This document shows positions 22,384 through 62,232 of a DNA stretch of 64,000 nt, piece by piece. Every line of letters starts with the position of its first letter. The stretch's first letter is position 1. Both the position numbers and the translations under genes were made by a program. The stretch is from Candidatus Omnitrophota bacterium (lineage in GTDB: Bacteria; Omnitrophota; Gorgyraeia; Duberdicusellales; 4484-171): positions 70,160 through 134,159 of the forward strand of contig JBAWWL010000008.1 of assembly GCA_037146775.1 (NCBI GenBank), in the 5' to 3' direction. The notes beneath the pieces were generated by a model. The model was not told the origin of the DNA. It did no database searches and worked only from the letters and a program-made list of their open reading frames with translations.

Positions 22384-22394
22384 AAGGAGGATAT

Positions 22395-23432: not shown

Positions 23433-23455
23433 ATAAGTCATATAGTGGGGTCAGA

Positions 23456-24285: not shown

Positions 24286-24445
24286 TAACGGGGTTAGATC
24301 GTAAAATGCGAAGTGTATCGCGGCGAGCATATAGCAAAATTAAAAAATATGAGTTATGTGCATGTAATTTTCAAAACAAAAAAACTAATTTCTTTAGATC
24401 TTAAGGTTTCTCTATTGCTCCACCGCCATATAATTTATAAATTGA

Positions 24446-42678: not shown

Positions 42679-43317
42679 TTAATTGAAACTTTTCAAAGCC
42701 TTTATAACCTTGCCAATAATTTCTATGGTAGTATTTTTTGGATCAATTACTATCGGTGCATAATCGTGATTACACGGCTCTAAAATAATTTTTTCGCTTT
42801 TCCCGTCTTCTGTTTTTGTTCTATAAAATTTTTTCATTGTGCATTCATCTCCTATCCGCGCCACAATAATATCGCCATTATTTATATGATTATTAGGCGA
42901 AACGATGACGAGGTCACCGTTAAAAATACCAGCTTCTTTCAAGCAGTCACCCTTTACGCGCAAGGCAAAGCAGTCTTTGTTTTTTACAAAATCATAATTT
43001 AAAATAATGGTATCAAGAATATCTTCGAATGCAAAATTAAATCTATCTGCCGGGCATTCACCGCGAACAGGTATTTCTACTGTTTTTGATATTGTAGTTT
43101 CTTTAACTGGTAACGCACCATAAAGTTCGGCCTCTGATATATTTAAAGTTTTGCAAAGTTTTTTCCTAGTTTCGGGATTAGGCTCATTAATGCCCTGTTC
43201 GATTGCTCGGATAGTAGCCAATTTTACCTTAGACTTTTCAGAAAGTTCTTCTTGAGTTAGTCCGGCCTGATCGCGATAAAATTTTAATTTTATAGTCATG
43301 GTAGATAGTATTATCAT
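42679..43317 (-). CDS. CI/LexA-like phage repressor (XRE HTH + S24 peptidase)
   Basis: N-terminal HTH (LTQEELSEKSKVKLATIRAIEQG); C-terminal S24 domain (FALRVKGDCL...). Confidence 0.85.
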   Translation of the reverse strand: MIILSTMTIKLKFYRDQAGLTQEELSEKSKVKLATIRAIEQGINEPNPETRKKLCKTLNISEAELYGALPVKETTISKTVEIPVRGECPADRFNFAFEDILDTIILNYDFVKNKDCFALRVKGDCLKEAGIFNGDLVIVSPNNHINNGDIIVARIGDECTMKKFYRTKTEDGKSEKIILEPCNHDYAPIVIDPKNTTIEIIGKVIKALKSFN

Positions 43318-46125: not shown

Positions 46126-46598
46126 AACGATTTTATTATTTTATCTTAATTGGGATGTTTGTATTAAGTTTTTCCGAAAATATTTACGCAAACAATCTTT
46201 GTGCCAGCTGGTATAGTCGCGAAAGTTTGATTAAAGAAGGGACTTGGAAGAACGGAAAAGAAAGGAGAATGGCAAATGGCAAAAAATTTAATGAGAACAA
46301 TCATACTTGCGCCACTAGGTTATATCCTATTGGGAGTATCCTGGTTATTACTAATATTGCAACGGGGGATAGATGTGTTGTTGAGGTTACTGATAGAATT
46401 GGGAGAAGGTTCGCTAAAAAAAGAATAGATTTAAGCAGAATGGCTTTTTCTTGTTTGGCCGATTTAGATACCGGCATTATCAAGGTTAAAGTCGAACCGA
46501 TAATAATAACCAAGCGGAAAAACGTTACTGCTTCCCGGGTAAGCGGAAAGCAGTACGTTCCGCCAAAGGTTAAGGATAAAAGATCAATAAAAAAATAA
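46122..46598 (+). CDS. RlpA-like double-psi beta-barrel (DPBB) protein, secreted
   Basis: CASWYS...CATRLYPIGSILVITNIATGDRCVVEVTDRIGRRFAKKRIDLSRMAF matches the RlpA/3D motif order. Confidence 0.6.
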   Translation: MKRFYYFILIGMFVLSFSENIYANNLCASWYSRESLIKEGTWKNGKERRMANGKKFNENNHTCATRLYPIGSILVITNIATGDRCVVEVTDRIGRRFAKKRIDLSRMAFSCLADLDTGIIKVKVEPIIITKRKNVTASRVSGKQYVPPKVKDKRSIKK

Positions 46599-46650
46599 TA
46601 ACAGGCCGGTCCGCACTTACCTGCGGCCGGTCACCAATAAGGAGGGTGAC

Positions 46651-47937
46651 GTGGTAGATATCAAATTATCTCAAATCTCATTAAGCGGAACTAATCCGCG
46701 TAAACGATTTAACGCCGAAATGTTCAAGGAGCTGGTTGATTCTGTACGTAAACACGGAATAATCGAGCCGTTAATTGTCCGGGAAAGAAAAAATATACCC
46801 AATCGCTTTGAGCTCGTATCCGGAGAGCGCCGCCTTAAGGCAGCTCAGGAGCTTAAGTTTGATGTAGTGCCGGCAATTAAAAAGGAATTAAACGATGTCG
46901 AGGTCCTTGAAATCCAGTTAATCGAGAACATCCAGCGCCAGGACCTTTCGCCGGTTGAAGAGGGAAGAGCGTTCAAGGCGCTCATGGCAGCATCTAAATG
47001 CACACAGGAAGACGTGGCGCAGAAGATCGGTAAAAGCCAGGGGTATGTAGCCGCCCGCGTAAGCCTTTTAGATCTACCGGAAGATTTTTTAAAATTACTT
47101 GAAGAAGATAAACTCCAAGCCGGGCATATAAAGTTCATGATGAATTTTAAGGCATCACCAAAAATATTAGACAACTTAAAGAAGAGATTAAAGGATCATT
47201 GGAAAAACGCAGATACTATTACCGTCAGAGAATTTCAAGATTTATGTTTAGATGTCACCTCAAGACAAACTAAACCGCTTTATAAAGAAAGCTATGGTGG
47301 CGATATGTGGCCGGTGTTTGATCTTAAGGTTTGCGAAAAGTGTGAACACAACAAAACCGTTGATCTTAAATGGGATAAAAACAAAAAACGTTGTTTCAAC
47401 CCGGAATGTTGGTCACAAAAACAAACAACATTTAAACGCGCCGAAGCCGAACGTGTCAGGGAAAAGGTAAAGTCCGGCAAGGTGGTAAAAGAAGCAGATT
47501 TACCCAAAAACCTACAAACTCTTGAAAATTGTAGGTTTGATAAGAAAACTTGCGCTAAATGTGAAAACCGGAAGATAGGAATTGTAAAAGATTGGAATAA
47601 TAAATCAGTAAAAAAAGAAATATGTCTCGATAAAGAATGTTACGCCCGGAAAGAAAAAGAAGCCCTGGAAGCGGCAGAAAATGCTAAGCAAGAAGCTTTT
47701 AAGAAGCAAGTAGAAAAATGTAAAGAAAAAGCCGCTAAAGGTGCTATGGATCGAGAGTTTGTTATTGAGCTTTTAGTTTCCAAGATGGGATGGGATAACC
47801 ATGAAGCGGTAACGCTTGCTTATGGTATCAAGCGCGAGATTTTGAATAATCACAAAAAAGCTATGGAATATTTCACAAGAAATACCAAGGTTAACGTAGA
47901 GGAGATACTGCGTTTCGTAACCTATTGGAAAGATTGA
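46651..47937 (+). CDS. ParB/Sulfiredoxin N-domain protein with C-terminal Cys-rich repeats
   Basis: GIIEPLIVRER...LVSGERRLKAAQEL ParB N-terminal motif; multiple CxxC pairs later. Confidence 0.7.
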   Translation: MVDIKLSQISLSGTNPRKRFNAEMFKELVDSVRKHGIIEPLIVRERKNIPNRFELVSGERRLKAAQELKFDVVPAIKKELNDVEVLEIQLIENIQRQDLSPVEEGRAFKALMAASKCTQEDVAQKIGKSQGYVAARVSLLDLPEDFLKLLEEDKLQAGHIKFMMNFKASPKILDNLKKRLKDHWKNADTITVREFQDLCLDVTSRQTKPLYKESYGGDMWPVFDLKVCEKCEHNKTVDLKWDKNKKRCFNPECWSQKQTTFKRAEAERVREKVKSGKVVKEADLPKNLQTLENCRFDKKTCAKCENRKIGIVKDWNNKSVKKEICLDKECYARKEKEALEAAENAKQEAFKKQVEKCKEKAAKGAMDREFVIELLVSKMGWDNHEAVTLAYGIKREILNNHKKAMEYFTRNTKVNVEEILRFVTYWKD

Positions 47938-48015: not shown

Positions 48016-48627
48016 ATGGGATCAGAAAGGTGGGCGATCTGTTGTCCCGGGCCATCGTTATCTAAATATAATTTTTCCAAAAGAATCCAAGTATACAACC
48101 CGGACTGCATCATAGCGGTAAACGGAGCAATCTGCGCTGACCTTGTTTTTGATTATTGGGCTTTAGGAGACATCGAAGTCTTTTCATCAGTATCCGCGAA
48201 GCTGGACTTACCGGGGATAGCTAAACGCACAATCCTATGGATACCTGATTTTTGGTTAAACCACATAAACAAATATACTGATCTTTCGCCAATATTTTAC
48301 AAATTCAGAAGAGAAACCTGGCATAACTTAACTTACGAAATGCATATTGGCATGGGATATCCTTGGAGAGAATACACGATGTTTGCGGCTATAGCCTTGG
48401 CAATAAAGAAAGAGGCCACATTTATTAAAATATATGGCGCTGACATGGATGGAAAGGGTTACTTCCAGCAAGGTTTTGAAAATGTCCGCACCAGGCACAA
48501 TCAGAAGCGCTGGGAAGACGAGCGTTTCTGGTTTAACGAGATAGTACACGTATGTAAGAAATATGGAATAGAAATTGTCCGCGACGAGGTTAAGAATGAA
48601 AGTATTGATAGTAGCGCCAAGGTATAA
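48016..48627 (+). CDS. phage hypothetical protein
   Basis: 203 aa, no recognisable motif. Confidence 0.4.
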   Translation: MGSERWAICCPGPSLSKYNFSKRIQVYNPDCIIAVNGAICADLVFDYWALGDIEVFSSVSAKLDLPGIAKRTILWIPDFWLNHINKYTDLSPIFYKFRRETWHNLTYEMHIGMGYPWREYTMFAAIALAIKKEATFIKIYGADMDGKGYFQQGFENVRTRHNQKRWEDERFWFNEIVHVCKKYGIEIVRDEVKNESIDSSAKV

Positions 48628-50092
48628 ACCTTTTGGCCAATTCTATGAGTTGCCGTTGGGCCTGGCGTATTTGTCAGCATATTTAAAGACAAAAGGTGTG
48701 CATGTTGATTTTTTAAATCTTAATCAGTGCCCTTTTGACGAGGTATTGATCAAGATGTTATCCGAAGCAGATATCGTTTGCACCGGGGGGCTTTCAGTGC
48801 ATTATCATCAAGTTAAAACTATTATCGATATGGCTAAATGCATCAATCCAGCTATAAAAACTATTGTCGGCGGCGGTTTGATAAGTGCAACCGCAGGCAT
48901 AGTGATGCGCGCTCTAAACGCTGACGTTGGGATCATAGGAGAAGGAGAAATAACATTATTTGAAGTCATAAAGGCCATAGAGGAAAAAAGAAAAATAAGC
49001 ACGATTCCAAACGTAATAGCCAATGAAGATGGCGTTTATGTTATTGATACTACTTCCTACCGGACAGAAATAGATAATATAGATACCCTGCCATTCCCGG
49101 ATTATGAAGGATTAGGCATAGAACAATATCTTGATAAACAATTATGCGGTGATGAACATTACCTTTATCCTTTTGATAACCCCCGCGGTATGCCTATCAT
49201 TTCCAGCCGGTCCTGCCCCTTCAACTGCACATTTTGTTTTCATCCTATCGGTCAAAAATACCGGCAAAGGTCGCTGGATAATTTATTCACTGAGATAGAT
49301 TATCTTGTAGAAAGATACCGGATTAATATTCTCTCTATACTTGATGAGCTTTTCTCTTTGGATCACGCGCGCATAAAAGAATTTTGCCGGCGTATCAAAA
49401 AATATAACCTTAGGTGGATGACGCAAATGCGTGTTGACAGCGTTACAGAAGAAATAATCGGCTTACTTAAAGAATCAGGCTGTTTTCAAATCAGCTTCGG
49501 CGTTGAAAGCGCAAGTAATAAGGTTTTAGAAAGCATGAATAAGAAAATCTCTATTGAACAAATAGGCCAGGCTCTTGAATGGTCCTATAACGCAGGGATA
49601 GGAATACAGGGAAACTTTATATTCGGGGATAAGGCCGAAACCCCGGCAACGGCAAAAGAAACACTGGATTGGTGGTTGGCGCATAAAAAATACGCGCTCA
49701 ATTTAACTTATATAATCCCTTACCCGGGAAGCGGGCTTTACAATTACGCAGTGATTAAGGGGATTATCAAGGATGAAACAAAATATCTTACAAATAATTG
49801 TCCTTTCGTAAAGATCACACCAAGCTTTCCGGAAGTTTCTTCTATGCTGGAATCATATAGAAACCAACACAATCACCTACCGGCAATAAACCAGGTATCT
49901 CAAAAGGTTGGATATGATCCAATCAGGGGCGAACTTTATCAGGTTACAGCCGTTTGCCCGCATTGCAAGAAACAGGAAACATATAAAAACTTATATTGGG
50001 GCAGTACCGGGATATCGTTTTTATCTGGGAGAGGTTACCGGATCGGCTGCCGGGATTGTAACCAGAGGTTTGATTTAACAAAGTTTAATTGA
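48596..50092 (+). CDS. B12-binding-domain radical SAM protein
   Basis: N-terminal B12-binding-like Rossmann fold then SRSCPFNCTFC (CxxxCxxC). Start set at MKVLIVAP. Confidence 0.7.
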   Translation: MKVLIVAPRYKPFGQFYELPLGLAYLSAYLKTKGVHVDFLNLNQCPFDEVLIKMLSEADIVCTGGLSVHYHQVKTIIDMAKCINPAIKTIVGGGLISATAGIVMRALNADVGIIGEGEITLFEVIKAIEEKRKISTIPNVIANEDGVYVIDTTSYRTEIDNIDTLPFPDYEGLGIEQYLDKQLCGDEHYLYPFDNPRGMPIISSRSCPFNCTFCFHPIGQKYRQRSLDNLFTEIDYLVERYRINILSILDELFSLDHARIKEFCRRIKKYNLRWMTQMRVDSVTEEIIGLLKESGCFQISFGVESASNKVLESMNKKISIEQIGQALEWSYNAGIGIQGNFIFGDKAETPATAKETLDWWLAHKKYALNLTYIIPYPGSGLYNYAVIKGIIKDETKYLTNNCPFVKITPSFPEVSSMLESYRNQHNHLPAINQVSQKVGYDPIRGELYQVTAVCPHCKKQETYKNLYWGSTGISFLSGRGYRIGCRDCNQRFDLTKFN

Positions 50093-50778
50093 TAATGAGA
50101 ATAGCAATAGCGATAGCAACGAGAGGAAACGATATCTATGCAAAGTTACTGCATTTTTGCTGTGAAGCTGTAAAGAAATATAATTGTGACATAGTTACTT
50201 CTGAAGCTGGTTTTTCTGCTGAACAAGCGCAGACAAATTTATTTCATTACATACTCAGCTGTGATTTTGATTATGTTCTTTTAATAGATAGCGATGTGGC
50301 GGTGCCCTTTGATACGCTGGATAAATTATTAGCCTGTAAAACCGACATTGTTAGCGCCCCGGTACTACATTATGATCCAATGACAAACGACATTCATTGG
50401 AATATATCTTTAGAAATGATTAACCCAACTGAATTTAAAAGATTATATGAGCGTAAAGATTCCGGGGTCGAAGAACTTATGTCATCATCATTTGCATGTC
50501 TTTTACTCAGCAAGAAAGTTTTTCAAATTTTTAAAGACGCCGGAGAAAGTTTTTTTACATGGTCGCCTTTGGTTGATGAAAGATGGAACAGGCGAAATTC
50601 GGACAACATTTTTTTCTTAAAAGCCAAAGCCTTGGGGTTACGATCGTTTGTTTGTTGGGAAATAAAAGGCGCTGTCCACAATAGAACAATTAAATTAACA
50701 GATCAGCTAATAACACACTTTTATGCGCATTGTCCGCAAAAATGTAAATCTGAAATAATAGAGATAAAAAAACCATAA
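50089..50778 (+). CDS. glycosyltransferase-like protein (putative, DSD motif)
   Basis: 229 aa; LLIDSDVAVPFD D-x-D-like motif in nucleotide-sugar-transferase-like context. Confidence 0.35.
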   Translation: MIMRIAIAIATRGNDIYAKLLHFCCEAVKKYNCDIVTSEAGFSAEQAQTNLFHYILSCDFDYVLLIDSDVAVPFDTLDKLLACKTDIVSAPVLHYDPMTNDIHWNISLEMINPTEFKRLYERKDSGVEELMSSSFACLLLSKKVFQIFKDAGESFFTWSPLVDERWNRRNSDNIFFLKAKALGLRSFVCWEIKGAVHNRTIKLTDQLITHFYAHCPQKCKSEIIEIKKP

Positions 50779-50784
50779 TTAGAT

Positions 50785-51498
50785 ATGAATAACGATACAA
50801 AATTATTAGTTATCTGCCCTAGCCGGATACGTCCGGTCCGGCTAAAAGAAATGCTTCAAAGCTTTGATGCCACGAAAAGCGAAGGTACAGATATCGTTGT
50901 TTATGTAGCTGATGATGATCCCACGATAGAAGAATACAAGTCTTTGTTGCAAGGTAGAAATCTTGTTATCGGGCGCCGCCGGCATCTTGTAGAGGTATTG
51001 AATTATATATCCTGCGAGCTTTACCCATGGCTGGCTTATTATGGCGAGATTAACGATGATCATATATATCGCACTCCTGGGTGGGACAAGGTGCTTATAA
51101 ACGCTTTAGAGGCACGTGGAGGAGGTTGGGGAATAGCTTGCGGAACTGATCATATAAATGATAACTGGTATAAGTTCAGACATCCAAGCGCTTGTGTAAT
51201 ATCCGGAAAGATGGTTAGAACACTTGGGTTTTTTGTTTTACCGCTTTTACAGCACATGTGGACCGATGTTTTTTTAAGGGATATTTCCGAAGGCATAGGA
51301 AGATTATACTTTTGTCCGGAAGTGGTAACAGAGCACATGCATATAAGTACCGGCAAAGCCAGAAACGATGCTAACTATAAGTGGGTATATTCACCGGAAC
51401 AAATGAAGTTTGGCCAAGAAAACTACGAAAAATGGAAACGGGAACATTATATACAAACCATCGATAAATTAAAAAAGGCCATAGAAAATGACCGTTGA
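50785..51498 (+). CDS. glycosyltransferase-like protein (putative GT2-like)
   Basis: LLVICPSRIRP...VVYVADDDP pattern. Confidence 0.35.
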   Translation: MNNDTKLLVICPSRIRPVRLKEMLQSFDATKSEGTDIVVYVADDDPTIEEYKSLLQGRNLVIGRRRHLVEVLNYISCELYPWLAYYGEINDDHIYRTPGWDKVLINALEARGGGWGIACGTDHINDNWYKFRHPSACVISGKMVRTLGFFVLPLLQHMWTDVFLRDISEGIGRLYFCPEVVTEHMHISTGKARNDANYKWVYSPEQMKFGQENYEKWKREHYIQTIDKLKKAIENDR

Positions 51499-52120
51499 CA
51501 TAGCTATACCTACTTATTGCAGGCCTCAAAAACTTTCTTGGCTTATTAAATCTATTCTTGTGAATGATTACCCGGGATATCGAATAATCATTATCCCTGA
51601 TTACGAGAGAAAACATGTATTCAGGTTGATCAATGAAGCATCTCAAAAGAGCGATGCAGATATATTTTTGGGTATATCCGATGATACAGAATTTGAACGT
51701 GACGTTATTATTTCGGCAGTTTCTTCTATGAAAGAACATTTTCCTGATACCGATGGAATTATCTATATGAATTGGTTAAATCTTCCCAATGTATGCAAGG
51801 GGGCTATCGCTTTTACCGGTAAAAAATTCCGTGAAAGGTTTCCTGATAAGTTTATATATTGTCCGGACTATATAAGTCTTTATGCTGATGATGAGCTTGG
51901 AAGGTATGCAGAGTCAATAAATAAGTTAGCTTTTTGTTCCGATACAGGATTGCATCATTACCATCCATCAGCTTATCCGGATCAGGTTGATATAACTCAT
52001 AAACTTGGAAGAGTAAATCAGCCGCACGACTTGGATGTTAGATCGTTAAGGAAAGCCAAGGGTTATCTTTGGGGAAAAGATTTCAATTTGGTAACAACAG
52101 ATTTAGAAAGAATTTTATAG
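51488..52120 (+). CDS. glycosyltransferase family 2 protein
   Basis: IAIPTYCRPQKL (IPTYNR-type) N-terminal motif and DxD region. Confidence 0.6.
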   Translation: MTVDIAIPTYCRPQKLSWLIKSILVNDYPGYRIIIIPDYERKHVFRLINEASQKSDADIFLGISDDTEFERDVIISAVSSMKEHFPDTDGIIYMNWLNLPNVCKGAIAFTGKKFRERFPDKFIYCPDYISLYADDELGRYAESINKLAFCSDTGLHHYHPSAYPDQVDITHKLGRVNQPHDLDVRSLRKAKGYLWGKDFNLVTTDLERIL

Positions 52121-52137
52121 AATCAAGAGTTTTCGAG

Positions 52138-53298
52138 ATGAATAAATTTATCGTAGTCAGTTACTATACAAAAAACACAAGTTATCAAAATAGCGTAGAG
52201 AGGTTAAGGCAGTCTTTGGATAAACTTAATATTAATTATCACATCCAGCCAATCGACAACCTGGGCAGCTGGGATAAAAACACCCACTATAAAGCAAGCT
52301 TTATTTTAGAAATGCTAGATAAGTATCCGGACAAGAACATAGTTTTTATAGACGCCGATGCGATAGTACATAGTTACCCTGATCTCTTTGACGTCCTGGA
52401 TGTTGATTTTGCTGTTCATTACTTCCGCGGCCGGCAACTGGCTTCCGGTACGCTGTTCTTTAAGAATAACACTATATCCAGGGAGCTATTAAAAGCATGG
52501 ATAGAGAGAAACAATCAAGACAAAACAAACCTGGATCAGCAAAATCTACAGAATATCATTGAAGAGGTTTGGAAATACAAGATAACAATTTTCGATTTAC
52601 CACCGGAATATTGCACTATCTTTGATATGAGAGAACGAATCCCACGCCCAATTATTGAGCATTTTCAGCTTTCCCGGGAAGGCCGCATAGAAGTTAATTT
52701 ATATCATAGGGAACACGAGAAATACTCAAAACAATGGAAAGATGGATATCAACGTTCTGCCTGCGCTGTGCCTTTAGGCTATTATATTGCAGCAAAAGCA
52801 CAGAAACATTGGAAGCTGCTTGACATCGGCTGTGGAGACGGAACAACTATTAATATTTTAAATAGATTAGGATTCTGCTGCTACGGTACGGATATAACCT
52901 TGAATGGATTAATAGGCAAGCCAATTTATACTTATAAAAACACACCAATTCCAGAAAATCTGATTACAGAGGCTCCTATATGGAATATTCCATGCAAAGA
53001 CGATGAATTTGATTTTACTTTTTCAACGGATATGCTTGAGCATTTACCACCGGAACTTATAAACAAATCAATCAAAGAAATATACCGTATATCAAAATTA
53101 AAGACATATCATTGCATTGCAAATTTCAGCCATATTTTATCTAATCAAGAAATGCACTTGACTATCCGCCCGTTCGAATGGTGGCAAAAGCATTTTGAAG
53201 CGCTTAACTTTAAAAAGATAGATACCAGGATAGATGATCGCAAGGATTTTATGCTTAGCCCACTGACACGGATAGGGGGTAATGAAAATGGCATTTAA
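52138..53298 (+). CDS. nucleotide-sugar-transferase-like domain fused to class I SAM methyltransferase
   Basis: C-terminal LLDIGCGDGTTINIL motif I; N-terminal GT8/DUF-like transferase fold features (IVFIDADAIV). Confidence 0.5.
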   Translation: MNKFIVVSYYTKNTSYQNSVERLRQSLDKLNINYHIQPIDNLGSWDKNTHYKASFILEMLDKYPDKNIVFIDADAIVHSYPDLFDVLDVDFAVHYFRGRQLASGTLFFKNNTISRELLKAWIERNNQDKTNLDQQNLQNIIEEVWKYKITIFDLPPEYCTIFDMRERIPRPIIEHFQLSREGRIEVNLYHREHEKYSKQWKDGYQRSACAVPLGYYIAAKAQKHWKLLDIGCGDGTTINILNRLGFCCYGTDITLNGLIGKPIYTYKNTPIPENLITEAPIWNIPCKDDEFDFTFSTDMLEHLPPELINKSIKEIYRISKLKTYHCIANFSHILSNQEMHLTIRPFEWWQKHFEALNFKKIDTRIDDRKDFMLSPLTRIGGNENGI

Positions 53299-53473
53299 TT
53301 TAAGATGTATGATCTGCGGCAATGAGCATAAAGCTAGAAAGGATAAATTCCCTGTAGTTTATGCTATCCAAGATAAAGATGCTAAGACCGGAGCAGTCAT
53401 CGAAAAAATATTAGGTCATGTCTGTAAAAAATGCGTTCGGAAGGCACGTAAGCACGGAGGAAGGATACAATGA
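53282..53473 (+). CDS. small zinc-ribbon protein
   Basis: CMICGNEH...CKKCVRK. Confidence 0.35.
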   Translation: MKMAFNLRCMICGNEHKARKDKFPVVYAIQDKDAKTGAVIEKILGHVCKKCVRKARKHGGRIQ

Positions 53474-53670
53474 TGTGGCTGCTTACGGCTTTGTCGATTG
53501 TTGGGGTAGTGCTTAATATACAAAAGAACAGGTCCTGTTTTAAGATCTGGGTTTTTACTAATGCATCCTGGTGCGTGTATGATTTTCTTATAAAAGCTTA
53601 CGCCCAAAGTTTTTTATTTCTTGTGTACACGGCTTTAGCGGTATGGGGTTTCGTTAAATGGAAAAAGTAA
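53470..53670 (+). CDS. small two-TM membrane protein
   Basis: 66 aa. Confidence 0.35.
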   Translation: MMWLLTALSIVGVVLNIQKNRSCFKIWVFTNASWCVYDFLIKAYAQSFLFLVYTALAVWGFVKWKK

Positions 53671-53691
53671 TAATCAAAAAGGAGGGAGAAG

Positions 53692-54135
53692 ATGAAGCAG
53701 GTTACTCGAAAACAAAAGACAAGTTCGCCAAGGTTTCTTGACAACGAGAATGGCACAATCACCGATACGAAGACCGGGCTTATCTGGGTTAAAAATCCGC
53801 ATACTGATTTGCCGGAAGAGTTTAAGAATTACATGACCTGGAAGCAAGCTGTAGACGCTTGTAAGAAGCTTAACTATGCCGGCAATAAAGACTGGCGGTT
53901 GCCTACGGTAGAGGAGTTAAGAGAGCTTGTAGATTACGCACGCGGCAGTAAGTCCGAAGAGCCAGCAATAGATACATCAGTCTTTCCGGATACTAAATGC
54001 AACTGGTACTGGACATCTACTTCCTGTGCCTGGGATCCGAGCAGCGCTTGGGTAGTGGATTTCTATGGCGGCGACGTGGGCAACGGCGGTAAGGGCAACA
54101 GTAACTATGTACGTCCGGTTCGTTCCAGCCAGTGA
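53692..54135 (+). CDS. DGR target protein, DUF1566 (C-type-lectin-fold) family, variable region at C-terminus
   Basis: WRLPTVEELRELV and NWYWTSTS motifs of DUF1566. The last 106 nt (54027-54132) are a mutated copy of the TR. Confidence 0.75.
   Translation: MKQVTRKQKTSSPRFLDNENGTITDTKTGLIWVKNPHTDLPEEFKNYMTWKQAVDACKKLNYAGNKDWRLPTVEELRELVDYARGSKSEEPAIDTSVFPDTKCNWYWTSTSCAWDPSSAWVVDFYGGDVGNGGKGNSNYVRPVRSSQ
54027..54132 (+). repeat. DGR variable region (VR)
   Basis: 106-nt match to TR 54657-54762; 15 differences, all at TR adenine positions. Confidence 0.85.
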
Positions 54136-54169
54136 GTTGAAGTTTTGACTTTTTTGACGAGGTTAAAAA

Positions 54170-54544
54170 ATGAGTTTATATGAACAACTTCCGGTTTATA
54201 AATCAGCCTTAGATTTAGCGGTGTATTTTGAAAAGATAGTTAGTAATTTTGAGCGTTCTCACAAGTTCACGATTGGAGCTGATTTAAAAAACCTCTCTCG
54301 CCGGATTCTTGTTTTGGTTGCTAAAGCCAACACTAAGCAATCAAGAAAAGAATGTCTTGTCGAGGTATTAGATAAACTGGAAGAGCTTAAAATTATCATT
54401 CATCTTTGCAAGGAGATAAAAGCATTCCGTTCTTTAAACAGTTTTGAATTTGCAACAAAGTCAGTAATCGAAGTATCGAAACAATGCGAAGGGTGGTTAA
54501 GAAGCCAGAATTTCTCAGGTGTAAAACTTGAGGAAGCGAGCTAA
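54170..54544 (+). CDS. avd: Avd-like accessory variability determinant (four-helix-bundle protein)
   Basis: 124 aa, all-helical, basic; matches the four-helix-bundle/Avd family pattern; positioned between target and TR as in BPP-1. Confidence 0.65.
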   Translation: MSLYEQLPVYKSALDLAVYFEKIVSNFERSHKFTIGADLKNLSRRILVLVAKANTKQSRKECLVEVLDKLEELKIIIHLCKEIKAFRSLNSFEFATKSVIEVSKQCEGWLRSQNFSGVKLEEAS

Positions 54545-54656: not shown

Positions 54657-54762
54657 TGCCTGGAATCCGAGCAGCGCTTGGATAGTGAATTTCAATAACG
54701 GCAACGTGAACAACAACAATAAGGACAACAATAACTATGTACGTCCGGTTCGTTCCAGCCAG
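54657..54762 (+). other. DGR template region (TR)
   Basis: Non-coding copy of the target gene 3' end, rich in AAC/AAT triplets; its 3' end overlaps the RT start. Confidence 0.85.
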
Positions 54763-55834
54763 CGGCTCAAAAAGTGGAATATTCTCTTACAGGAATATCT
54801 ACCGGAGTTATCTTGATTGCCGGCGCAAAAAACGCAATACTTATAATGCGCTAAAGTTTGAGATTAACGCCGAAGAGAATATTCTTAAGTTAGAGCAATC
54901 ATTAAAGAACAAAACTTACCACCCTTCGCGTTCTATTCTTTTTGCCGCCAAGAAACCTAAATTACGAGAAATATTCGCCGCTGATTTTAAAGATAGGGTA
55001 GTTCACCATATCCTGGTTAATGAACTTGAAAAGATATGGGAGCCTATCTTTATTTACGATTCCTACGCCTGCCGCGATGGGAAAGGAACACACAGGGCAG
55101 TAGCTAGATTGCAGAAATTTTTGCGTAGCGCGACAACAAACGGTAAAGTCCGGGCATATTATTTGCAGCTGGATATTAAAGACTTTTTTACAAGCATAGA
55201 CAAGAAAACACTCTTTTCTTTGATCAGCCGGAAAGTATCGAATCCGGACGTTCTCTGGCTTGTGGATGTGATCCTTTTCTGGGATTGCACTAAGTCATAT
55301 ACACCTAAAGGGCCTAAACAAATATTGCTTAATATCCCACCTAACAAAAGCCTTTTTGATAAAGATAATTTACGCGGTTTGCCTATAGGTAATCTTACCA
55401 GTCAATTCTTTGCAAATATTTACTTGAACACCCTAGATCAATTCGTGAAGCATAATCTCAAAGCAAAATATTATCTGCGTTACGTAGATGACTTTGTATT
55501 GTTAAGTAGGGATAAAGACGAGCTCCTGCGATGGAAAGAAGAAATCAAAAACTTCCTGGCTAATACCCTAAGTCTACAACTACACCCTAAACGTCAAAAG
55601 CTTCAACCGGTATCCAATGGCATAGATTTCTTGGGTTATATTACTCGGCACAACTATATCTTGGTTAGGCGTAGGGTAGTCAATAATCTTAAGGCGCTAA
55701 TTGAAGCTTTTACAAAGTCAAAAGTTAAAGATTTCAAAAAGTTTAACGATTCAATAGCTTCATACCTAGGACATTTCAAGTGGGCAAATACTTTTAGGTT
55801 GAAGAATAAACTAGGGTTATCTTATGCAAATTAG
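54737..55834 (+). CDS. DGR reverse transcriptase (bRT-like)
   Basis: Motif-by-motif similarity to Bordetella phage bRT: DFKDRVVHHIL, DSYACRDGKGTHRAV, LQLDIKDFFTSID, LPIGNLTSQFFANIY, YLRYVDDFVLL (YxDD), IDFLGYI. Confidence 0.85.
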   Translation: MYVRFVPASGSKSGIFSYRNIYRSYLDCRRKKRNTYNALKFEINAEENILKLEQSLKNKTYHPSRSILFAAKKPKLREIFAADFKDRVVHHILVNELEKIWEPIFIYDSYACRDGKGTHRAVARLQKFLRSATTNGKVRAYYLQLDIKDFFTSIDKKTLFSLISRKVSNPDVLWLVDVILFWDCTKSYTPKGPKQILLNIPPNKSLFDKDNLRGLPIGNLTSQFFANIYLNTLDQFVKHNLKAKYYLRYVDDFVLLSRDKDELLRWKEEIKNFLANTLSLQLHPKRQKLQPVSNGIDFLGYITRHNYILVRRRVVNNLKALIEAFTKSKVKDFKKFNDSIASYLGHFKWANTFRLKNKLGLSYAN

Positions 55835-56204
55835 TTTTTTTATAGATGTATCGCCATCATCTTTAAACACCACGCAGTGCCAACACTGGACAGCGCGATA
55901 CAAAGATCGTAATAGATGGAGAGAATTAATATTCGAACACTGGATGTTAAACAAACGGTACGTATTTACTAAGCCGGTAAAGGTGTTATATATTTTAAGT
56001 TTTCCAGATAGACGCCAGCGCGATAAAGATAACTATATCGGCGGCATGAAAAATATCACTGACGCATTAAAGAAAACATTTATAACTCGGGACGACGCAA
56101 GTTGGCTTAGGAACGTCGATGTAGCCTTCATAAAAGGCCCTCAAGGATTAAGAGTTCTCATTGACGAGGTAACCGAAGCGGAAAACAGAGGAAATGTAAG
56201 TTAA
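55824..56204 (+). CDS. rusA: RusA-like Holliday junction resolvase
   Basis: 126 aa; PDRRQRDKDNYIGGMKNITDAL matches the RusA catalytic D-x-D-N region. Confidence 0.55.
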   Translation: MQISFFIDVSPSSLNTTQCQHWTARYKDRNRWRELIFEHWMLNKRYVFTKPVKVLYILSFPDRRQRDKDNYIGGMKNITDALKKTFITRDDASWLRNVDVAFIKGPQGLRVLIDEVTEAENRGNVS

Positions 56205-56205: not shown

Positions 56206-57273
56206 ATGACTAAGTATCTTTTTGACGGACACAAATTAATTTGGCACATGGATAGAGTTCATAAGCATTACAAGCTTGGTAAACGTATCCCACCTATTCA
56301 TATAGATATTGGAGTTACAAAGCTATGCAATGCACGGTGTGTTTATTGCTACGGTATCTTTCAAAAGTTAAGTGGTGATATTATCCCTAAGTCTACGCTA
56401 ATGAGGCTCTTTAAGGACGCTCCCACTTGTGGGGTTAAGTCTTTAGCTATTATTGGCGACGGCGATCCTACATTAAACTCCGGAATCTATGATGCAATAA
56501 CCGTTGGCAAGGATAGCGGGCTTGACATAGCTTTTGGAACTAACGGTATTCTGCTTGATGATGATAAGTTGTTATGCCTTTTATCTTCCTGCGCGTGGTT
56601 AAGGTTTAATCTTTCGGCAGTAGATAAGCAAAGATATTTAGATATTCACGGCGTAGACAAGTGGGGGCAAGTTAAAGGGAATATCATAAGAGCGGCAGAG
56701 CTTAAAAGTAGGTACGGCCTTAAATGCACGATTGGTTTGCAAATGGTGTTGATACCTGATTGCGTTGAGCAAGTCATACCGGAAGCGCAATTTGCTTTAG
56801 ACACCGGAGTTGACTATTTCGTTATTAAGCAATTCAGCGACCCGCAATGTGATGAAATGTCAAGGTTTTCTCTGACTTGGTATGATAACCCCGAGGTGTT
56901 AGATATCCTTAAACGCGCCGAGGCAATGTCAACGGATAAGACAGCGATTATTCCAAAATGGAACACAATATCATCTAAAGGTGTGAGGCCCTACGACCAT
57001 TGCGTTGACTGCCCGCTTATTTTCCAGATTAGCGGAAACGGAAAAGCCTACCCTTGCGGCTATCTGTTTGGCGATGATAGGTATTGCTATGGCGATTTAA
57101 ATAAACAATCGCTGGGCGAGATTTTATACAGCGAGCATTATTGGGGAGTAATTAAATATATGCGCGAGAGGTTTGATGTGCATAAGGATTGCGCGGGGTG
57201 CTGTCGTCATGACCACAGTAACAAGTTTATTTGGGGATACTTACATCCACCGGTACACTTAAATTTCATTTAG
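56206..57273 (+). CDS. radical SAM protein with C-terminal Cys-rich (SPASM/twitch-like) region
   Basis: CNARCVYC CxxxCxxC; C-terminal CVDC...PCGY...CAGCC. Confidence 0.7.
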   Translation: MTKYLFDGHKLIWHMDRVHKHYKLGKRIPPIHIDIGVTKLCNARCVYCYGIFQKLSGDIIPKSTLMRLFKDAPTCGVKSLAIIGDGDPTLNSGIYDAITVGKDSGLDIAFGTNGILLDDDKLLCLLSSCAWLRFNLSAVDKQRYLDIHGVDKWGQVKGNIIRAAELKSRYGLKCTIGLQMVLIPDCVEQVIPEAQFALDTGVDYFVIKQFSDPQCDEMSRFSLTWYDNPEVLDILKRAEAMSTDKTAIIPKWNTISSKGVRPYDHCVDCPLIFQISGNGKAYPCGYLFGDDRYCYGDLNKQSLGEILYSEHYWGVIKYMRERFDVHKDCAGCCRHDHSNKFIWGYLHPPVHLNFI

Positions 57274-57280
57274 GAGGCTT

Positions 57281-57664
57281 ATGAAACATAAAACAAATAT
57301 TGATATGAGCTTAGGTGATGTGATTGACAGGTTGACTATTCTTTCAAGAAAGATATTTTTCGGCGCCGAGGGGGCATATAAAGAGCATACTTATCTTACC
57401 GAGGGTATAGATAGGCTTGGGATTAAGCTATCCGGCGCTCTCCTTGCCGTAATTATCCGCATAAACCAGATGAATATAGAAATATGGAACTTGGAAAATT
57501 CTATCCGTAACGACACCGAAGACAAAATGGACAATGCCGAGGTTGGCAGACGCGCCAAGCTGATACGCGATTACAACAAGAAGCGGATCGAATACAAAAA
57601 CGAAATTAACCGTCTTACTGAAATGGGGTTTCGTGAGTTCAAAACAAAACACAGAAGCCAATGA
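57281..57664 (+). CDS. phage hypothetical protein
   Basis: 127 aa helical. Confidence 0.4.
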   Translation: MKHKTNIDMSLGDVIDRLTILSRKIFFGAEGAYKEHTYLTEGIDRLGIKLSGALLAVIIRINQMNIEIWNLENSIRNDTEDKMDNAEVGRRAKLIRDYNKKRIEYKNEINRLTEMGFREFKTKHRSQ

Positions 57665-58233
57665 TAAAACAAGAACTTATTGATTTTGAAGACGAAATAG
57701 CCGAGTTGTTCAAGGCTAAAAAAATAAAATGCCCTATTCACTTAAGCGGGGGTAATGAAGACGAACTTATAAGTATTTTTAAGAACATATCGCCAAAGGA
57801 TTATGTATTTTCTACTCACAGGAACCATTACCATTATCTACTTCATACCGGGGCAGCGGAAAGATTGAAGAAACAGATACTATCTGGTGACAGTATGCAC
57901 ACCTGCGACCCAGAGCATAATTTCTATTCTTCATCTATTGTGTCTGGGTGCGTGGCAATTGCCTGTGGGGTGGCGTTGGCGTTGAAGATGAAGAAAAGCA
58001 AACAAAAGGTTTGGTGCTTTGTCGGTGATGCCGGTACTGATGAGGGTTGGTTTTGGGAGGCATTAAGGTATTCGGCAGGCTTGCCGATAACTTTTGTGGT
58101 AGAAGATAACAATAGATCAGTTTTTGCCACCAACAAGCAACGTTGGGGGGGTATGAAGAAAGTTAATATTATTGCTTATAAATATAAATGCGGTTGGCCG
58201 CACGTCGGTTGTGGTGAATGGGTAACATTTTGA
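57661..58233 (+). CDS. TPP-dependent enzyme, E1-alpha/transketolase-N-like subunit
   Basis: GDAGTDEGWFWEAL resembles the TPP-binding GDG...E...N motif region. Confidence 0.5.
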   Translation: MIKQELIDFEDEIAELFKAKKIKCPIHLSGGNEDELISIFKNISPKDYVFSTHRNHYHYLLHTGAAERLKKQILSGDSMHTCDPEHNFYSSSIVSGCVAIACGVALALKMKKSKQKVWCFVGDAGTDEGWFWEALRYSAGLPITFVVEDNNRSVFATNKQRWGGMKKVNIIAYKYKCGWPHVGCGEWVTF

Positions 58234-58733
58234 AATATAAAGATTATCTTCACAATACTATGTTGCGGTTAGCCAAAGACTATAGGGTTCGTTTCTTAGG
58301 GTACAACACAAGATATGGGCATAAATTTAACGGAACGCTGGAAGGGTGCGAGGGATCTTGCTTGGAAATGCCAGTAGCGGAGAACCTTATTTTAGGCGTA
58401 GCCATGGGTATGGCTCTTGAGGGCTACAGGCTGATTGTTTGTATAGAACGAATGGACTTTCTCTGGGCTTGCGCGGATGCTCTGATTAACCACTTAGATA
58501 AAACTATAGAGTTGGGTTGGCCTGCGTTAGACATAATCATCCGGACGTGCGTGGGTGGGATTAGCCCGCTGGATCCAGGTTGCCAGCATAAGGGCGATTA
58601 TTATGATGTTTTCAAGGGATTGATGAAAGAAGTTTTTGTTACTACCTCTTGGAGTAAAGCGTTAAAACATAAAGGCGCGGTCATGGTTGTTGAGTGGAGA
58701 AATGATTATGAAAAAGATTATACTCCCCGATAG
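58218..58733 (+). CDS. TPP-dependent enzyme, E1-beta/transketolase pyrimidine-binding-like subunit
   Basis: Overlaps and follows the alpha-like subunit; Pyr-domain-like fold motifs (EMPVAENLILGVAMGMALEG). Confidence 0.45.
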   Translation: MGNILKYKDYLHNTMLRLAKDYRVRFLGYNTRYGHKFNGTLEGCEGSCLEMPVAENLILGVAMGMALEGYRLIVCIERMDFLWACADALINHLDKTIELGWPALDIIIRTCVGGISPLDPGCQHKGDYYDVFKGLMKEVFVTTSWSKALKHKGAVMVVEWRNDYEKDYTPR

Positions 58734-59532
58734 TTATAGCTATATCGGTGCTTTCTTAACTCTTAGGTGCGGATTGGGTTGTTCTTATTGCCTTAATCAT
58801 TATGACGTTTCGGGAAAGTTTGACGAGATGAGTACCGAGGATTGGATTACCGGACTTTCTCGGATAGAAACAAGGGAAGATTTTCCTATAACTCTGCAGG
58901 GCGGCGAGCCTACGGTTCATAAAGGATTTTATGATATAGCCAGTAGTCTTCATTCATTGAATCAATGCATGGATTTGCTTACCAACGGAATGTTCGATGT
59001 AAAAGAATTTCAGCAACGGTTAAGGGCTACAACTTTTTTCAGAGAAGCCAAGTATGCCTCTATAAGATTCTCTTTCCACGAATCAACGGTTGGTATTGCC
59101 TTGGCTATGAAAGTTTGGACGTTAAAAAATAACGGCTATCAGGTGGGAATATGGGGGTTGGGTGATACGGAAAGAAATAAAATCATGGCTGTGTTATGCA
59201 AACAACTTAACATTGATTTCAGGTTAAAAGAATTTTTGTCTGAGGACCTTGGAACATATAAATATCCCGAAGCCCATACTAAGAAATTCAAGAAGACGGT
59301 GATGTGCAAGCCAAGAGAGTTTCTTGTCGGGCCTTCCGGGCATATCTTCCGTTGTCATGCTGACCTATACGCTAACCGTAACCCTATAGCGCATATTCTT
59401 GATGAGAGTATTGAGTTTAAAGATTCATTCCCCTGTGATAATTACGGGCATTGTAACCCTTGTGATGTGAAGTTAAAGACCAATAGATTCCAGGAGTTTG
59501 GATATTGTTCTGTGTTAATCAAAGAACTATAA
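58708..59532 (+). CDS. radical SAM protein
   Basis: CGLGCSYC CxxxCxxC near the N-terminus; C-terminal CHAD...C...CNPC cluster. Confidence 0.65.
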   Translation: MKKIILPDSYSYIGAFLTLRCGLGCSYCLNHYDVSGKFDEMSTEDWITGLSRIETREDFPITLQGGEPTVHKGFYDIASSLHSLNQCMDLLTNGMFDVKEFQQRLRATTFFREAKYASIRFSFHESTVGIALAMKVWTLKNNGYQVGIWGLGDTERNKIMAVLCKQLNIDFRLKEFLSEDLGTYKYPEAHTKKFKKTVMCKPREFLVGPSGHIFRCHADLYANRNPIAHILDESIEFKDSFPCDNYGHCNPCDVKLKTNRFQEFGYCSVLIKEL

Positions 59533-60130: not shown

Positions 60131-61429
60131 ATGATTAACATTAATATAAAACCGGAAATAAAGGAAATCTATTTAAAGAATATTTTTCCTAATCCTGCCA
60201 ATCCGCGTGATATCACCGAAGAAGCCATGGCGGGACTACAAAAAAGCCTTGAGCAATTTGGTTACGTGGATTTACTTATTGTCAATAAACGTAATATGCA
60301 ACTTATTGCTGGCCACCAACGTTTAAAAATATTCAAAGAAAATGGTATCAAGCGCGTTCCTTGTATTTTGGTTGATATTAACGATATGCGTCAGCAGACA
60401 ATGGCTATAACTTTGAATAATCAGCAAATTGTAGGTTTTTGGACAGCGGCATTAATTCCCATTTTAGAAAAAATACGTCAAGAAATACCAGACGATTATA
60501 TTAACTTAAGGATAGAAGCTCTCCGCGAAGAAGTTGAAGAACTTGAGAAAGAAAGTTTAGGTACTGGAAAAACATTACCAGATGATATACCGCCTATTCC
60601 TAAGAAGGCTGTCACTAAGGCAGGGGATCTATGGATATTAGGACAGCATCGGATTTTGTGCGGGAGTAGCACTAATAAAGATCACGTTGCGCATTTGATG
60701 GATGGACGTAAGGCGCGATTGTTGGCTACAGATCCACCATATCTGGTTGATTATACTGGTGACGATAGACCCAAATCCGGAAAAGACTGGTCTGATGTAT
60801 ATCACGAAATCGATATCCCCGATGCGTATATATTTTATAAAGACTTCCTGTCGATTGCGCTTAAACATATTAATAATAATTCAGCAATTTATATGTGGCA
60901 TGCATCTAAACGCATTGACGTAATCCAAAAAGTATTTATTGAATTAAAAATTTTAATCCATCAGATAATTATTTGGGTTAAACCTTGTGCAATATTGACA
61001 TTCTCAATATATCCATGGAGACATGAGCCATGCATATTTGGCTGGTTGCAAGGCAATAAGCCAAAAATTAAAGCTACAGCAAACAAAACCGGAACAGTAT
61101 GGACAATAGGATTAATGCGCACAGGAGATCCAGCAAGCCCGGAATATTATACTGACATCTGGGAAATTGATTGGGAGGGAAAGAAGAGAAGCCCGGGTAA
61201 AGATCATCCCACAATCAAGCCTACCGAAGTCTTTGCAATTCCTATGCGCGTTCATACAAACCCGGGAGATATCTGCTATGAGCCTTTTAGTGGGTCCGGA
61301 TCGCAAATAATAGCAGCTGAACGATTAAACCGTAGATGCTTTGCTATGGAGATAGAACCGATCTTTGTAGATGTGGCGGTAAAGCGCTGGGAAGAGTTCA
61401 CAGGTAAAAAAGCTAAATTAGAAAAATAA
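60131..61429 (+). CDS. ParB-like nuclease domain / DNA methyltransferase fusion (N6-adenine or N4-cytosine)
   Basis: N-terminal ParB-N motif (LIAGHQRLKIF); MTase motifs LLATDPPYL (DPPY) and CYEPFSGSGSQIIAAE (FxGxG). Confidence 0.8.
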   Translation: MININIKPEIKEIYLKNIFPNPANPRDITEEAMAGLQKSLEQFGYVDLLIVNKRNMQLIAGHQRLKIFKENGIKRVPCILVDINDMRQQTMAITLNNQQIVGFWTAALIPILEKIRQEIPDDYINLRIEALREEVEELEKESLGTGKTLPDDIPPIPKKAVTKAGDLWILGQHRILCGSSTNKDHVAHLMDGRKARLLATDPPYLVDYTGDDRPKSGKDWSDVYHEIDIPDAYIFYKDFLSIALKHINNNSAIYMWHASKRIDVIQKVFIELKILIHQIIIWVKPCAILTFSIYPWRHEPCIFGWLQGNKPKIKATANKTGTVWTIGLMRTGDPASPEYYTDIWEIDWEGKKRSPGKDHPTIKPTEVFAIPMRVHTNPGDICYEPFSGSGSQIIAAERLNRRCFAMEIEPIFVDVAVKRWEEFTGKKAKLEK

Positions 61430-61605
61430 TATTAATAAATAGGAAAAATTAAAAGAACCAGTATGAAAGTAATTACGGCCGGGATCGCCGCGTAAACGGC
61501 GACCCAACCCACATGATATCAGCATGTAGGCTTTATGCGACCGAGGGAAGCTAAATGAATGATATTCTACCGAATAGTTAGCATATTTGTCAACATCGAT
61601 ACTAT

Positions 61606-62232
61606 GTGGGTACTATGTCTGAGGGAAATAGCAAAATACCGGGGATACTGGAAGTGGCAAATAAAAAACGTCATCTTTTCTTATTGCAAAAACTTCATGA
61701 AGGAAAATCTCTGTCTAGATCAGAAATAAAAGAATTAGAAAAGTTTGAAGGAAAAAATCCTAAACCGGGAATAATCACTACCCAAGAAAAGCTCGCCCAA
61801 ATTTTCGGGGTATCCAACCGAACTATCCGCTACTGGGAAAAAGAAGGTTTGCCGAAGACATCTGAAGGTTTCTACAATATCGCTGATGTTCAGGAATGGA
61901 GATTTTGTAATGATAAACGCCGCAAAAATATCCCCAAGAAAAAAGAAGATGAGTATGAATCACAGTTTAGGAAATTCAAAGCTTTATTAGCCGAGATAGA
62001 ATGGAAAGAAAAAACAAAACAACTTATTCCCATAGGTGATGTAGAAAAAGATAATGTTCAAAAAATCATAGCGATTAAAACAAAATTTTTATCTTTACCC
62101 CGCACAATAGCCCCTCAGCTAGTAGGTTTAGAAGTACAGAAGATAGAAAGTATTTTAAGGATAAGAATAGAGGAGATTGTAAATGATTTTGCAAGCGGAA
62201 AGATTACCCACACTAAGAAAAAGACAAAATAA
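61606..62232 (+). CDS. terminase small subunit (putative)
   Basis: MerR-like HTH (IFGVSNRTIRYWEKEGLP); directly upstream of and overlapping the large terminase. Confidence 0.45.
   Translation: MGTMSEGNSKIPGILEVANKKRHLFLLQKLHEGKSLSRSEIKELEKFEGKNPKPGIITTQEKLAQIFGVSNRTIRYWEKEGLPKTSEGFYNIADVQEWRFCNDKRRKNIPKKKEDEYESQFRKFKALLAEIEWKEKTKQLIPIGDVEKDNVQKIIAIKTKFLSLPRTIAPQLVGLEVQKIESILRIRIEEIVNDFASGKITHTKKKTK

Follow-up and report, generated by a model that had tools for sequence, protein, structure and literature searches.

The target of the diversity-generating retroelement (DGR) of phage BPP-1, Mtd, is a 381-amino acid (aa) trimeric tail-fibre tip protein encoded among tail genes. Here we describe a DGR in a 64,000-nucleotide (nt) stretch of a Candidatus Omnitrophota genome (contig JBAWWL010000008.1; the whole analysed stretch is referred to as the window), the target gene of which (53692-54135) encodes a 147-aa protein of the Lcl_C family (PF07603, formerly DUF1566). 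In the survey of Wu et al. [quoted passage not shown] Roux et al. (2021) found viral DGR targets to be mostly tail proteins and cellular ones to be mostly membrane-anchored, and mentioned viral non-structural targets (PMC8144416). An earlier sequence-only reading of the window had presented a short DUF1566 target as an oddity; small DUF1566-only targets are already known as a kind (PMC5758913), and what is new here is the Omnitrophota prophage member.

Like the short form of category 'd', the window target has its VR at the C-terminus of a DUF1566/Lcl_C domain, is short, carries no other motif and is encoded in the order target, accessory variability determinant (Avd), template repeat (TR), reverse transcriptase (RT). 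The short targets of that survey, in contrast, were not assigned to phage early regions, and their missing export signals went uncommented (PMC5758913); the clade to which the window target belongs also differs from category 'd' in being clearly phage-borne and without signal peptides, often with several targets per TR. With BPP-1 (Mtd-Avd-TR-Brt), the locus shares a phage-encoded, adenine-specific system with an Avd, a C-terminal VR carried by a C-type-lectin fold and a target gene directly 5´ of avd, but the window target is much shorter than Mtd, has no Mtd or tail-fibre domains and is encoded in a replication/recombination region, and no GC-rich hairpin was found after the VR. LdtA of Legionella pneumophila belongs to the same DUF1566 VR/domain class and has a C-type-lectin fold (PMC5758913), but is an exported chromosomal-island lipoprotein displayed on the outer membrane, whereas the window target is prophage-encoded and, judging from N-terminal hydropathy, has no signal or lipoprotein sequence. 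The DUF1566 fold is shared with another Legionella protein, Lcl (8q4e), whose C-terminal domain is a trimeric glycosaminoglycan-binding adhesin head (PMC11162425) and whose N-terminal amphipathic helix is matched in longer paralogues of the target family; unlike the window target, to which it is 23% identical, Lcl is a secreted trimeric collagen-stalk adhesin that is not DGR-diversified. The targets of Doré et al. (2024, PNAS) are likewise DGR-diversified C-type-lectin domains, predicted there to be cytoplasmic, but those targets are cellular, large and multidomain (STAND NTPases and others) and have effector partners, whereas the window target is a bare phage domain (PMC10907252). In the literature we found nothing specific on the target clade, on Omnitrophota DGRs or on DGR-diversified anti-defence proteins.

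The cassette in the window consists of the following parts.

53692-54135, forward strand: DGR target gene, Lcl_C/DUF1566, 147 aa (Pfam)
54027-54132, forward strand: VR, target codons 113-147 (gapless alignment with the TR)
54170-54544, forward strand: bAvd, the accessory variability determinant, 124 aa (Pfam bAvd, 3.8e-12; PHROG 'Avd protein of DGR', 7.7e-18)
54657-54762, forward strand: TR, its 3´ end overlapping the RT start codon (VR/TR alignment)
54737-55834, forward strand: DGR reverse transcriptase, 365 aa (Pfam RVT_1, 3.4e-22; motifs; matches to phage DGR RTs)

VR and TR align without gaps over 106 nt at an offset of 630 nt, and all 15 mismatches fall at adenines of the TR (14 A>G and one A>T). 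The mismatches are spread over 11 target codons (115, 121, 123, 125, 126, 128, 130, 132, 133, 135 and 137) and not the eight counted in the sequence-only reading, which had missed D115, V121 and D123. With 31 adenines and 12 AAY codons, the mutagenised stretch of the TR makes ~5e17 protein variants possible. The RT carries the DGR-typical motif IGNLTSQ at residue 217 and YVDD at residue 249; it is 37-42% identical to phage DGR RTs, and its best phage matches are annotated as DGR or retron-type RTs. Because the adenine-only VR/TR signature, the bAvd and an RT with both motifs are all present, target, Avd, TR and RT here form a complete, canonical DGR cassette. When TR adenines were treated as wildcards, the window held two copies of the repeat only, the VR and the TR, with no second VR and no second Lcl_C gene, and no extra VR was found in the 7.4 kb by which an assembly from the Logan collection extends past the window end.

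The repeats have further features at their 3´ ends. Both terminate in a common GC-rich sequence, TCCAGCCAG, and split right after it, with TGA in the VR and CGG in the TR, an arrangement that is kept across relatives. The ATG of the RT gene lies inside the TR, with an overlap of 26 nt (54737-54762), and the 3´ end of the TR thus encodes the RT N-terminus MYVRFVPAS, which mirrors the C-terminal YVRPVRSSQ of the target in a different reading context. The spacer between the target stop and the avd start (54136-54169) contains the motif TTTGAC[A/T]nTTTT ... GAGG, conserved at the same position in four related loci described below (L001, L002, L004 and L005); this may be an alternative retrohoming cis element, or a regulatory or ribosome-binding element. 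A short-read assembly of the same phage, Logan contig SRR12676968_20883 (L009), begins at 54733, inside the TR, which is consistent with the VR/TR repeat, or heterogeneity of the VR, upsetting assembly.

The same codons are hypervariable across the family. In an alignment of 96 sequences, mean entropy was 2.79 bits at the columns of TR-adenine codons versus 1.19 bits in the rest of the domain (Mann-Whitney p = 2e-8), and the residues found at these columns (S, G, D, Y, N and C) are typical for AAY mutagenesis. Pairs with identical scaffolds differ chiefly in the VR: homologues P0002 and P0003 agree at 93 of 98 scaffold positions and at 16 of 26 VR positions. Three contig pairs (L092/L100 and L097/L103 from IMG/VR, and L094 with the European Nucleotide Archive contig L005) are 100% identical, VRs included, and are therefore uninformative on recent DGR activity. 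The concentration of entropy at TR-adenine codons across the family supports ongoing mutagenic retrohoming indirectly, and we infer that the DGR of the window prophage may be active at present.

The target gene is complete, with two features immediately upstream of its start.

53671-53673, forward strand: in-frame TAA, 21 nt 5´ of the target ATG, which caps the open reading frame (ORF) at 147 aa
53679-53686, forward strand: Shine-Dalgarno sequence AAGGAGGG, 5 nt before the target ATG

No alternative ATG, GTG or TTG was found between the TAA and the target ATG. The Lcl_C match covers residues 21-144 and the profile from end to end (positions 1-117 of 117, E 6.9e-37), with a score of 126.8 bits against a cutoff of 34.9. 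Lcl_C is the sole Pfam match, with 20 residues ahead of the domain, and the PHROG matches are to families with no assigned function. The sequence-only reading was right about the position, length and family of the target. The protein is identical in sequence to an NCBI entry named 'MAG: DUF1566 domain-containing protein [Candidatus Omnitrophota bacterium]'. That entry comes from a 153,777-bp contig of a Candidatus Omnitrophota metagenome-assembled genome. Among 5.8 billion proteins searched, 411 relatives were found; the best 120, on which our length and N-terminus figures are based, are 91-217 aa long and all match Lcl_C. We could therefore reject a longer upstream start, a frameshifted tail-fibre gene and a 3´ fragment of such a gene, the case that the sequence-only reading had singled out as fatal to its view, because of the upstream TAA, the ribosome-binding site, the unrelated, non-fibre 5´ ORFs and the similar size of the best homologues.

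Of these 5´ ORFs, the one directly upstream of the target (53470-53670, 66 aa) matches only the last 63 positions of the profile of PnuC, a nicotinamide mononucleotide transporter, and represents a gene remnant or else a membrane mini-protein with two helices. The other encodes a 63-aa CxxC...CxxC (zinc-ribbon-like) mini-protein, which is found near the DGR or Lcl_C gene in four loci.

Window, 53282-53473: CxxC mini-protein
L012, 9678-9860: CxxC mini-protein
L001, 13358-13537: CxxC mini-protein
L101, 771-953: CxxC mini-protein

The same mini-protein is encoded directly 5´ of a 144-aa Lcl_C gene in another Omnitrophota metagenome-assembled genome, and may have been conserved as a companion of the cassette.

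The N-terminus of the target, MKQVTRKQKTSSPR, is basic and hydrophilic, with a disordered tail of ~14 aa and no signal peptide. The Kyte-Doolittle maximum (12-residue) near the N-terminus is -0.9, in line with the earlier statement that a hydrophobic segment is missing. That this had been taken for an oddity proved unwarranted: a missing signal peptide is expected for phage-encoded proteins, virion ones included, and 114 of the 120 best homologues likewise have no hydrophobic N-terminal stretch, a convincing signal peptide being found in P0102 only. Three types of N-terminus occur in the family: a basic tail of 10-18 residues, as in the window protein; an amphipathic helix, KETVLSVLKEIRDLL; and a conserved module, KQVERILEDRIDIPGIARDLLAAGY, which AlphaFold models as a hairpin of two helices, with a flexible basic linker leading to the lectin domain. 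As modelled, the helical hairpin and linker of these longer family members are compatible with a docking or oligomerisation module.

The AlphaFold2 model of the target, obtained with the 96-sequence alignment, reached a predicted local distance difference test score (pLDDT) of 93.5 and a predicted template modelling score of 0.85, with disorder in the first ~10 residues only. Its top match in the PDB is 8q4e, the C-terminal domain of Legionella Lcl (Foldseek E 1.6e-5, template modelling score 0.58-0.64), which was also recovered by sequence (hmmsearch E 2.9e-5, at the 23% identity given above); the next matches are snake C-type lectin-like proteins and the C-terminal domain of Bdellovibrio Bd2740. 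On the strength of this model we are confident that the target is a complete single-domain protein of the C-type-lectin fold. With the VR at codons 113-147, the model and these matches also support the sequence-only reading in placing a C-type-lectin variable face at the C-terminus. Predicted viral structures show the fold at the C-terminus of 594- and 1417-aa proteins named tail fibre or peptidase S74 domain-containing, and also as small stand-alone DUF1566 phage proteins. In cellular genomes, Lcl_C is fused to TIR, protein kinase, caspase (Peptidase_C14) and DnaJ domains (L027, L057, L065, L053, L048 and L075); the fold is thus also in use in cytoplasmic signalling or conflict proteins. A profile search for informative domain fusions in the clade of the target itself was swamped by giant multi-repeat Lcl_C proteins.

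The contigs that carry the closest homologues share the cassette (identities of 60-74% for the target, 65-77% for Avd and 68-75% for the RT), with only 30-54% identity for the integrase and repressor, and all are phage-like. Their gene content is as follows.

L001: integrase, helix-turn-helix repressors, YqaJ, RecT, SSB, target-Avd-RT, methyltransferase, TerS, portal
L002: target-Avd-RT, Rep_O, second Lcl_C, ParB, methyltransferase, portal
L004: tail J-like, ~15 small ORFs, Lcl_C, Gp3-like, target-Avd-RT, portal, capsid
L005: integrase, S24 repressor, cro-like, Lcl_C, Gp3-like, target-Avd-RT, Rep_O, terminase
L007: integrase, S24 repressor, target-RT, Gp3-like, DPBB, GT2, cytidylyltransferase, LicD, radical SAM-SPASM, methyltransferase
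L008: two Lcl_C genes ~1.6 kb 3´ of an Mtd_2nd-domain tail protein

L008 is the single relative with targets just 3´ of tail genes. The idea of a 'split Mtd' at this locus, with the Mtd_2nd-domain protein as a headless fibre that docks the small proteins, was discarded: profile-profile comparison gave no relation, and the protein has a C-terminal region of its own. A weak match to the Acb2/Tad1 hairpin beside the Lcl_C genes of L008 was not reproduced in a repeat Pfam scan and is not used as evidence.

For 13 IMG/VR contigs, Pfam matches were counted in 130 ORFs located up to 6 kb from the cassette. Lcl_C was found 13 times, bAvd eight, RVT_1 seven and ParB_N five times, with three occurrences each of C-5 cytosine DNA methylase, RusA, YopX and VRR-NUC; terminase, portal and RecT were also present, and Dam, N6/N4 and Methyltransf_24 methyltransferases occurred once each. 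Tail-fibre families were absent from the top 25, by frequency, of the 29 Pfam families matched in these neighbourhoods. The conserved neighbourhood of the DGR is the phage replication/recombination ('nin-like') region. In seven loci (L002, L004, L005, L020, L021, L031 and L033), one TR matches two to three separate small Lcl_C genes, so that two or three paralogues are usually diversified in the lineage, typically one with a short basic N-terminus and one with an N-terminal amphipathic helix; the window phage, unlike these relatives, has a single target. An IMG/VR-wide scan with the conserved 3´ end of VR and TR, TATGTNCGNCCNGTNCGYTCCAGCCAR, recovered complete VR-bearing ORFs of 127-182 aa without signal peptides, the sole exception being one of 261 aa with a signal peptide, and no large VR-bearing ORF was found, contigs of 43-48 kb (probably complete genomes) included. 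In GTDB representative genomes, the best relatives are 43-48% identical and mostly large multidomain proteins with signal peptides and no RT nearby, while small DGR-linked versions without a signal peptide recur in Lysobacterales, Dokdonella soli JCM 15421 (L020) being one example. The GenBank phage collection gave no DNA match and, for the target, no tblastn match at E < 1e-5; relatives there were found by the RT only. Collectively, the cassettes form a coherent phage-borne DGR lineage, the targets of which are nearly all small and without a signal peptide.

In the window itself, positions 1-41 kb are cellular (UvrA, NAD synthetase, tRNA-Met, an RlmL-like methyltransferase, AMMECR1, a two-component system and an ABC transporter), followed by the prophage, which has these features outside the cassette (SAM, S-adenosylmethionine; TPP, thiamine pyrophosphate).

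41310-42305, reverse strand: tyrosine integrase, the left landmark of the prophage (Pfam Phage_integrase, 1.3e-30)
42307-42669, reverse strand: BamE-like lipoprotein gene, between integrase and repressor
42679-43317, reverse strand: cI/LexA-like repressor (HTH_3 and Peptidase_S24)
45127-47937, forward strand: replication initiator-like gene (HTH_36), DPBB lytic-transglycosylase-like gene and ParB
48016-53298, forward strand: upstream cargo, with a B12-radical SAM enzyme, glycosyltransferase-like genes and a fusion of glycosyltransferase and SAM-methyltransferase
48575-50092: the B12-binding radical SAM enzyme of this block
50785-51498, 51488-52120 and 52069-53298: glycosyltransferase-like genes
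55824-56204, forward strand: RusA-like Holliday-junction resolvase, directly 3´ of the RT (PHROG, 3.2e-11)
56206-59532, forward strand: downstream cargo, with radical SAM-SPASM, DUF4254-like, TPP E1-like subunits and radical SAM (Pfam)
56206-57273: radical SAM-SPASM enzyme
57661-58733: split TPP E1/transketolase-like alpha and beta subunits
58687-59532: radical SAM enzyme of the second block
60131-62232, forward strand: ParB-N6/N4 DNA methyltransferase and MerR/Nu1-like small terminase

The rightward order is thus replication initiator-like gene, DPBB, ParB, enzyme cluster, DGR, RusA, second enzyme block, ParB-methyltransferase and small terminase, which puts the DGR in the early/replication region of the prophage, with the target between the replication genes and RusA; RusA adjoins the cassette in L093, L099 and L104 too. 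The independent Logan assembly matches the window without a difference over 9,268 nt, and its extension beyond the window end encodes a GpA-type large terminase, a lambda-type portal and a Mu gpT-like capsid protein. No tail gene was found between the integrase (41310) and the window end or in the 7.4 kb beyond. We conclude with very high confidence that the complete DGR resides on a lambda-like prophage integrated in the Candidatus Omnitrophota chromosome. The BamE-like lipoprotein gene is a candidate for lysogenic conversion or superinfection exclusion. Elsewhere in the window, the tRNA-Met gene (12977-13050) is followed by ~11 kb of DNA (to 24300) of lower GC content (0.34-0.38 versus ~0.41-0.44); no Pfam match above the curated cutoff was obtained for 8 ORFs scanned in 12977-24300, out of ~13 of at least 100 aa, and this stretch may be a second integrated element or island.

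For the mechanism, we envisage that RT and Avd would copy the TR transcript, misincorporating opposite adenines, and that the mutated cDNA would replace the VR at the 3´ end of the adjacent target gene, with up to 31 adenine positions (12 AAY codons) rewritten. Such retrohoming would presumably alter the C-terminal strands and loops that make up the binding face. Expressed from the phage early/replication region, the target would be synthesised in the cytoplasm when the cell is induced or infected, and, as a soluble variable module, might reach the exterior without Sec, either by docking non-covalently to the virion or by release at lysis. Once outside, it would recognise variable structures on the host surface, doing the job of Mtd as a separate small subunit. 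We tentatively favour such a soluble accessory adhesin, virion-docked or lysis-released, because every characterised phage DGR target is, to our knowledge, a receptor-binding protein, because the fold forms the tip of fibres and adhesins elsewhere, and because the N-terminal helical modules of the paralogues suit docking or oligomerisation. The oligomeric state, localisation and ligand of the target are putative in this reading.

Several observations weigh against an adhesin. The target is encoded outside the tail/late structural module in the window and in most relatives, which is atypical for a virion component, and the neighbours in the 13 IMG/VR loci are ParB, DNA methylases, RusA, YopX, VRR-NUC, RecT and terminase. 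Outside the lectin domain there are only ~14 residues and hence no evident attachment domain, and no partner protein of the target was identified. Given the fusions of Lcl_C to cytoplasmic domains, the fold alone implies no extracellular role. A GC-rich hairpin of the BPP-1 type was not found 3´ of the VR, where we detected a weak A/T stem only (z-score -0.5). Finally, a remote VR in a tail gene of the prophage, beyond the scanned window and the additional 7.4 kb, is possible.

The explanation that survives best beside the accessory adhesin is that the target acts inside the cell, its hypervariable face binding variable proteins of the host or of competitor phages, for anti-defence or to retarget host factors, and the DGR keeping the phage in step with host immune diversity. 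We regard this as possible, although on balance unlikely. The placement among early replication and recombination genes, beside RusA, ParB, methyltransferases, RecT, SSB and Rep_O in the window and its relatives, argues for it, as do the lack of a signal peptide and of a virion-attachment domain and the basic N-terminal tail. Cytoplasmic architectures are moreover available (TIR-Lcl_C, kinase-Lcl_C, caspase-Lcl_C and DnaJ-Lcl_C), and cytoplasmic C-type-lectin DGR targets have been proposed for bacterial conflict systems (PMC10907252). On the other hand, none of the experimentally characterised phage DGR targets is known to be intracellular, the nearest structural relatives are extracellular adhesins, and no effector or partner was identified; the position of the cassette may also track the RT and Avd, which are nucleic-acid enzymes, and not the function of the target. 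A more specific form of the idea, to which we give somewhat less credence, is that a lineage of temperate phages diversifies, by means of its DGR, a free cytoplasmic lectin-fold 'intrabody' that would bind and neutralise variable host defence proteins and would be expressed early or co-injected by means of its basic tail.

The target might instead benefit the host if the lysogen expressed it as a variable sensor or decoy to block superinfecting phages, in a DGR-based defence. Defence genes are common on prophages, DGR-based immunity has already been proposed (PMC10053308), and the BamE-like lipoprotein gene beside the integrase suggests that this prophage carries lysogenic-conversion genes. 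The target gene, however, lies deep in a rightward operon, opposite the repressor, and has no effector domain, and a scan for a dedicated promoter or terminator around it gave nothing above shuffled expectation, making expression in a repressed lysogen unlikely. We consider such a role very improbable.

A link to the flanking enzymes is very improbable indeed. Here, the target would bind the product of the adjacent glycosyltransferase, radical SAM and TPP genes, such as modified DNA, a glycosylated virion or a modified surface polysaccharide. The enzyme cargo, with three or four glycosyltransferase-like genes in the early region, does look like a pathway for an unusual modified sugar destined for DNA, the virion or the cell surface; the window DGR is embedded between its two blocks, and L007 has GT2, cytidylyltransferase, LicD, radical SAM-SPASM and methyltransferase genes ~5 kb 3´ of its DGR. 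Most of the window enzyme genes, however, have no homologues in other DGR loci, the exceptions being orf203 (in L007 and L099) and two enzymes with weak partial matches in L007 (41% over 54 aa for the glycosyltransferase-methyltransferase fusion and 23% for the radical SAM-SPASM enzyme). No comparable cluster was found within ~6-10 kb in L001, L002, L004, L005 or the 13 IMG/VR loci, the IMG/VR census giving one radical SAM match, and a hypervariable binder is ill-suited to one fixed enzyme product. Because most of its genes have no homologues in other DGR loci and a comparable cluster occurs in L007 only, the enzyme cluster is variable prophage cargo that flanks the DGR by chance and not a conserved functional partner. 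The sequence-only reading, which had noted glycosyltransferase, radical SAM and TPP neighbours and no tail genes nearby, was accurate on gene content, but the meaning it attached to these neighbours falls away, as the cluster is not conserved with the DGR.

That the target is the 3´ remnant of a longer tail-fibre gene created by frameshift or misassembly, or that the DGR has decayed, has a negligible chance of being correct, since, even though the TR is where the short-read assembly breaks off, which shows that the repeat troubles assemblers, an in-frame stop and a strong ribosome-binding site precede the start, the 5´ ORFs (PnuC-like remnant and zinc-ribbon mini-protein) are not fibre-like, the architecture and length recur in hundreds of homologues, the match spans the whole Pfam domain and the parts of the DGR are all intact.

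We found no published description of the systematic early-region placement and multi-target organisation of this lineage. The recurrent placement among replication and recombination genes, often with two to three small targets per TR and never with a large tail-type target, goes beyond routine annotation; it is at odds with the textbook view that phage DGRs diversify tail fibres and leaves room for a non-canonical function. Because the pattern of the lineage does not fit the tail-fibre view, the clade is a good test case for roles of phage DGRs beyond receptor binding. If the target is an accessory adhesin, the result would be incremental. An intracellular target would constitute a new category of phage counter-defence, and an 'intrabody' would be without precedent both as a hypervariable anti-defence system and as a phage DGR target other than a receptor-binding protein.

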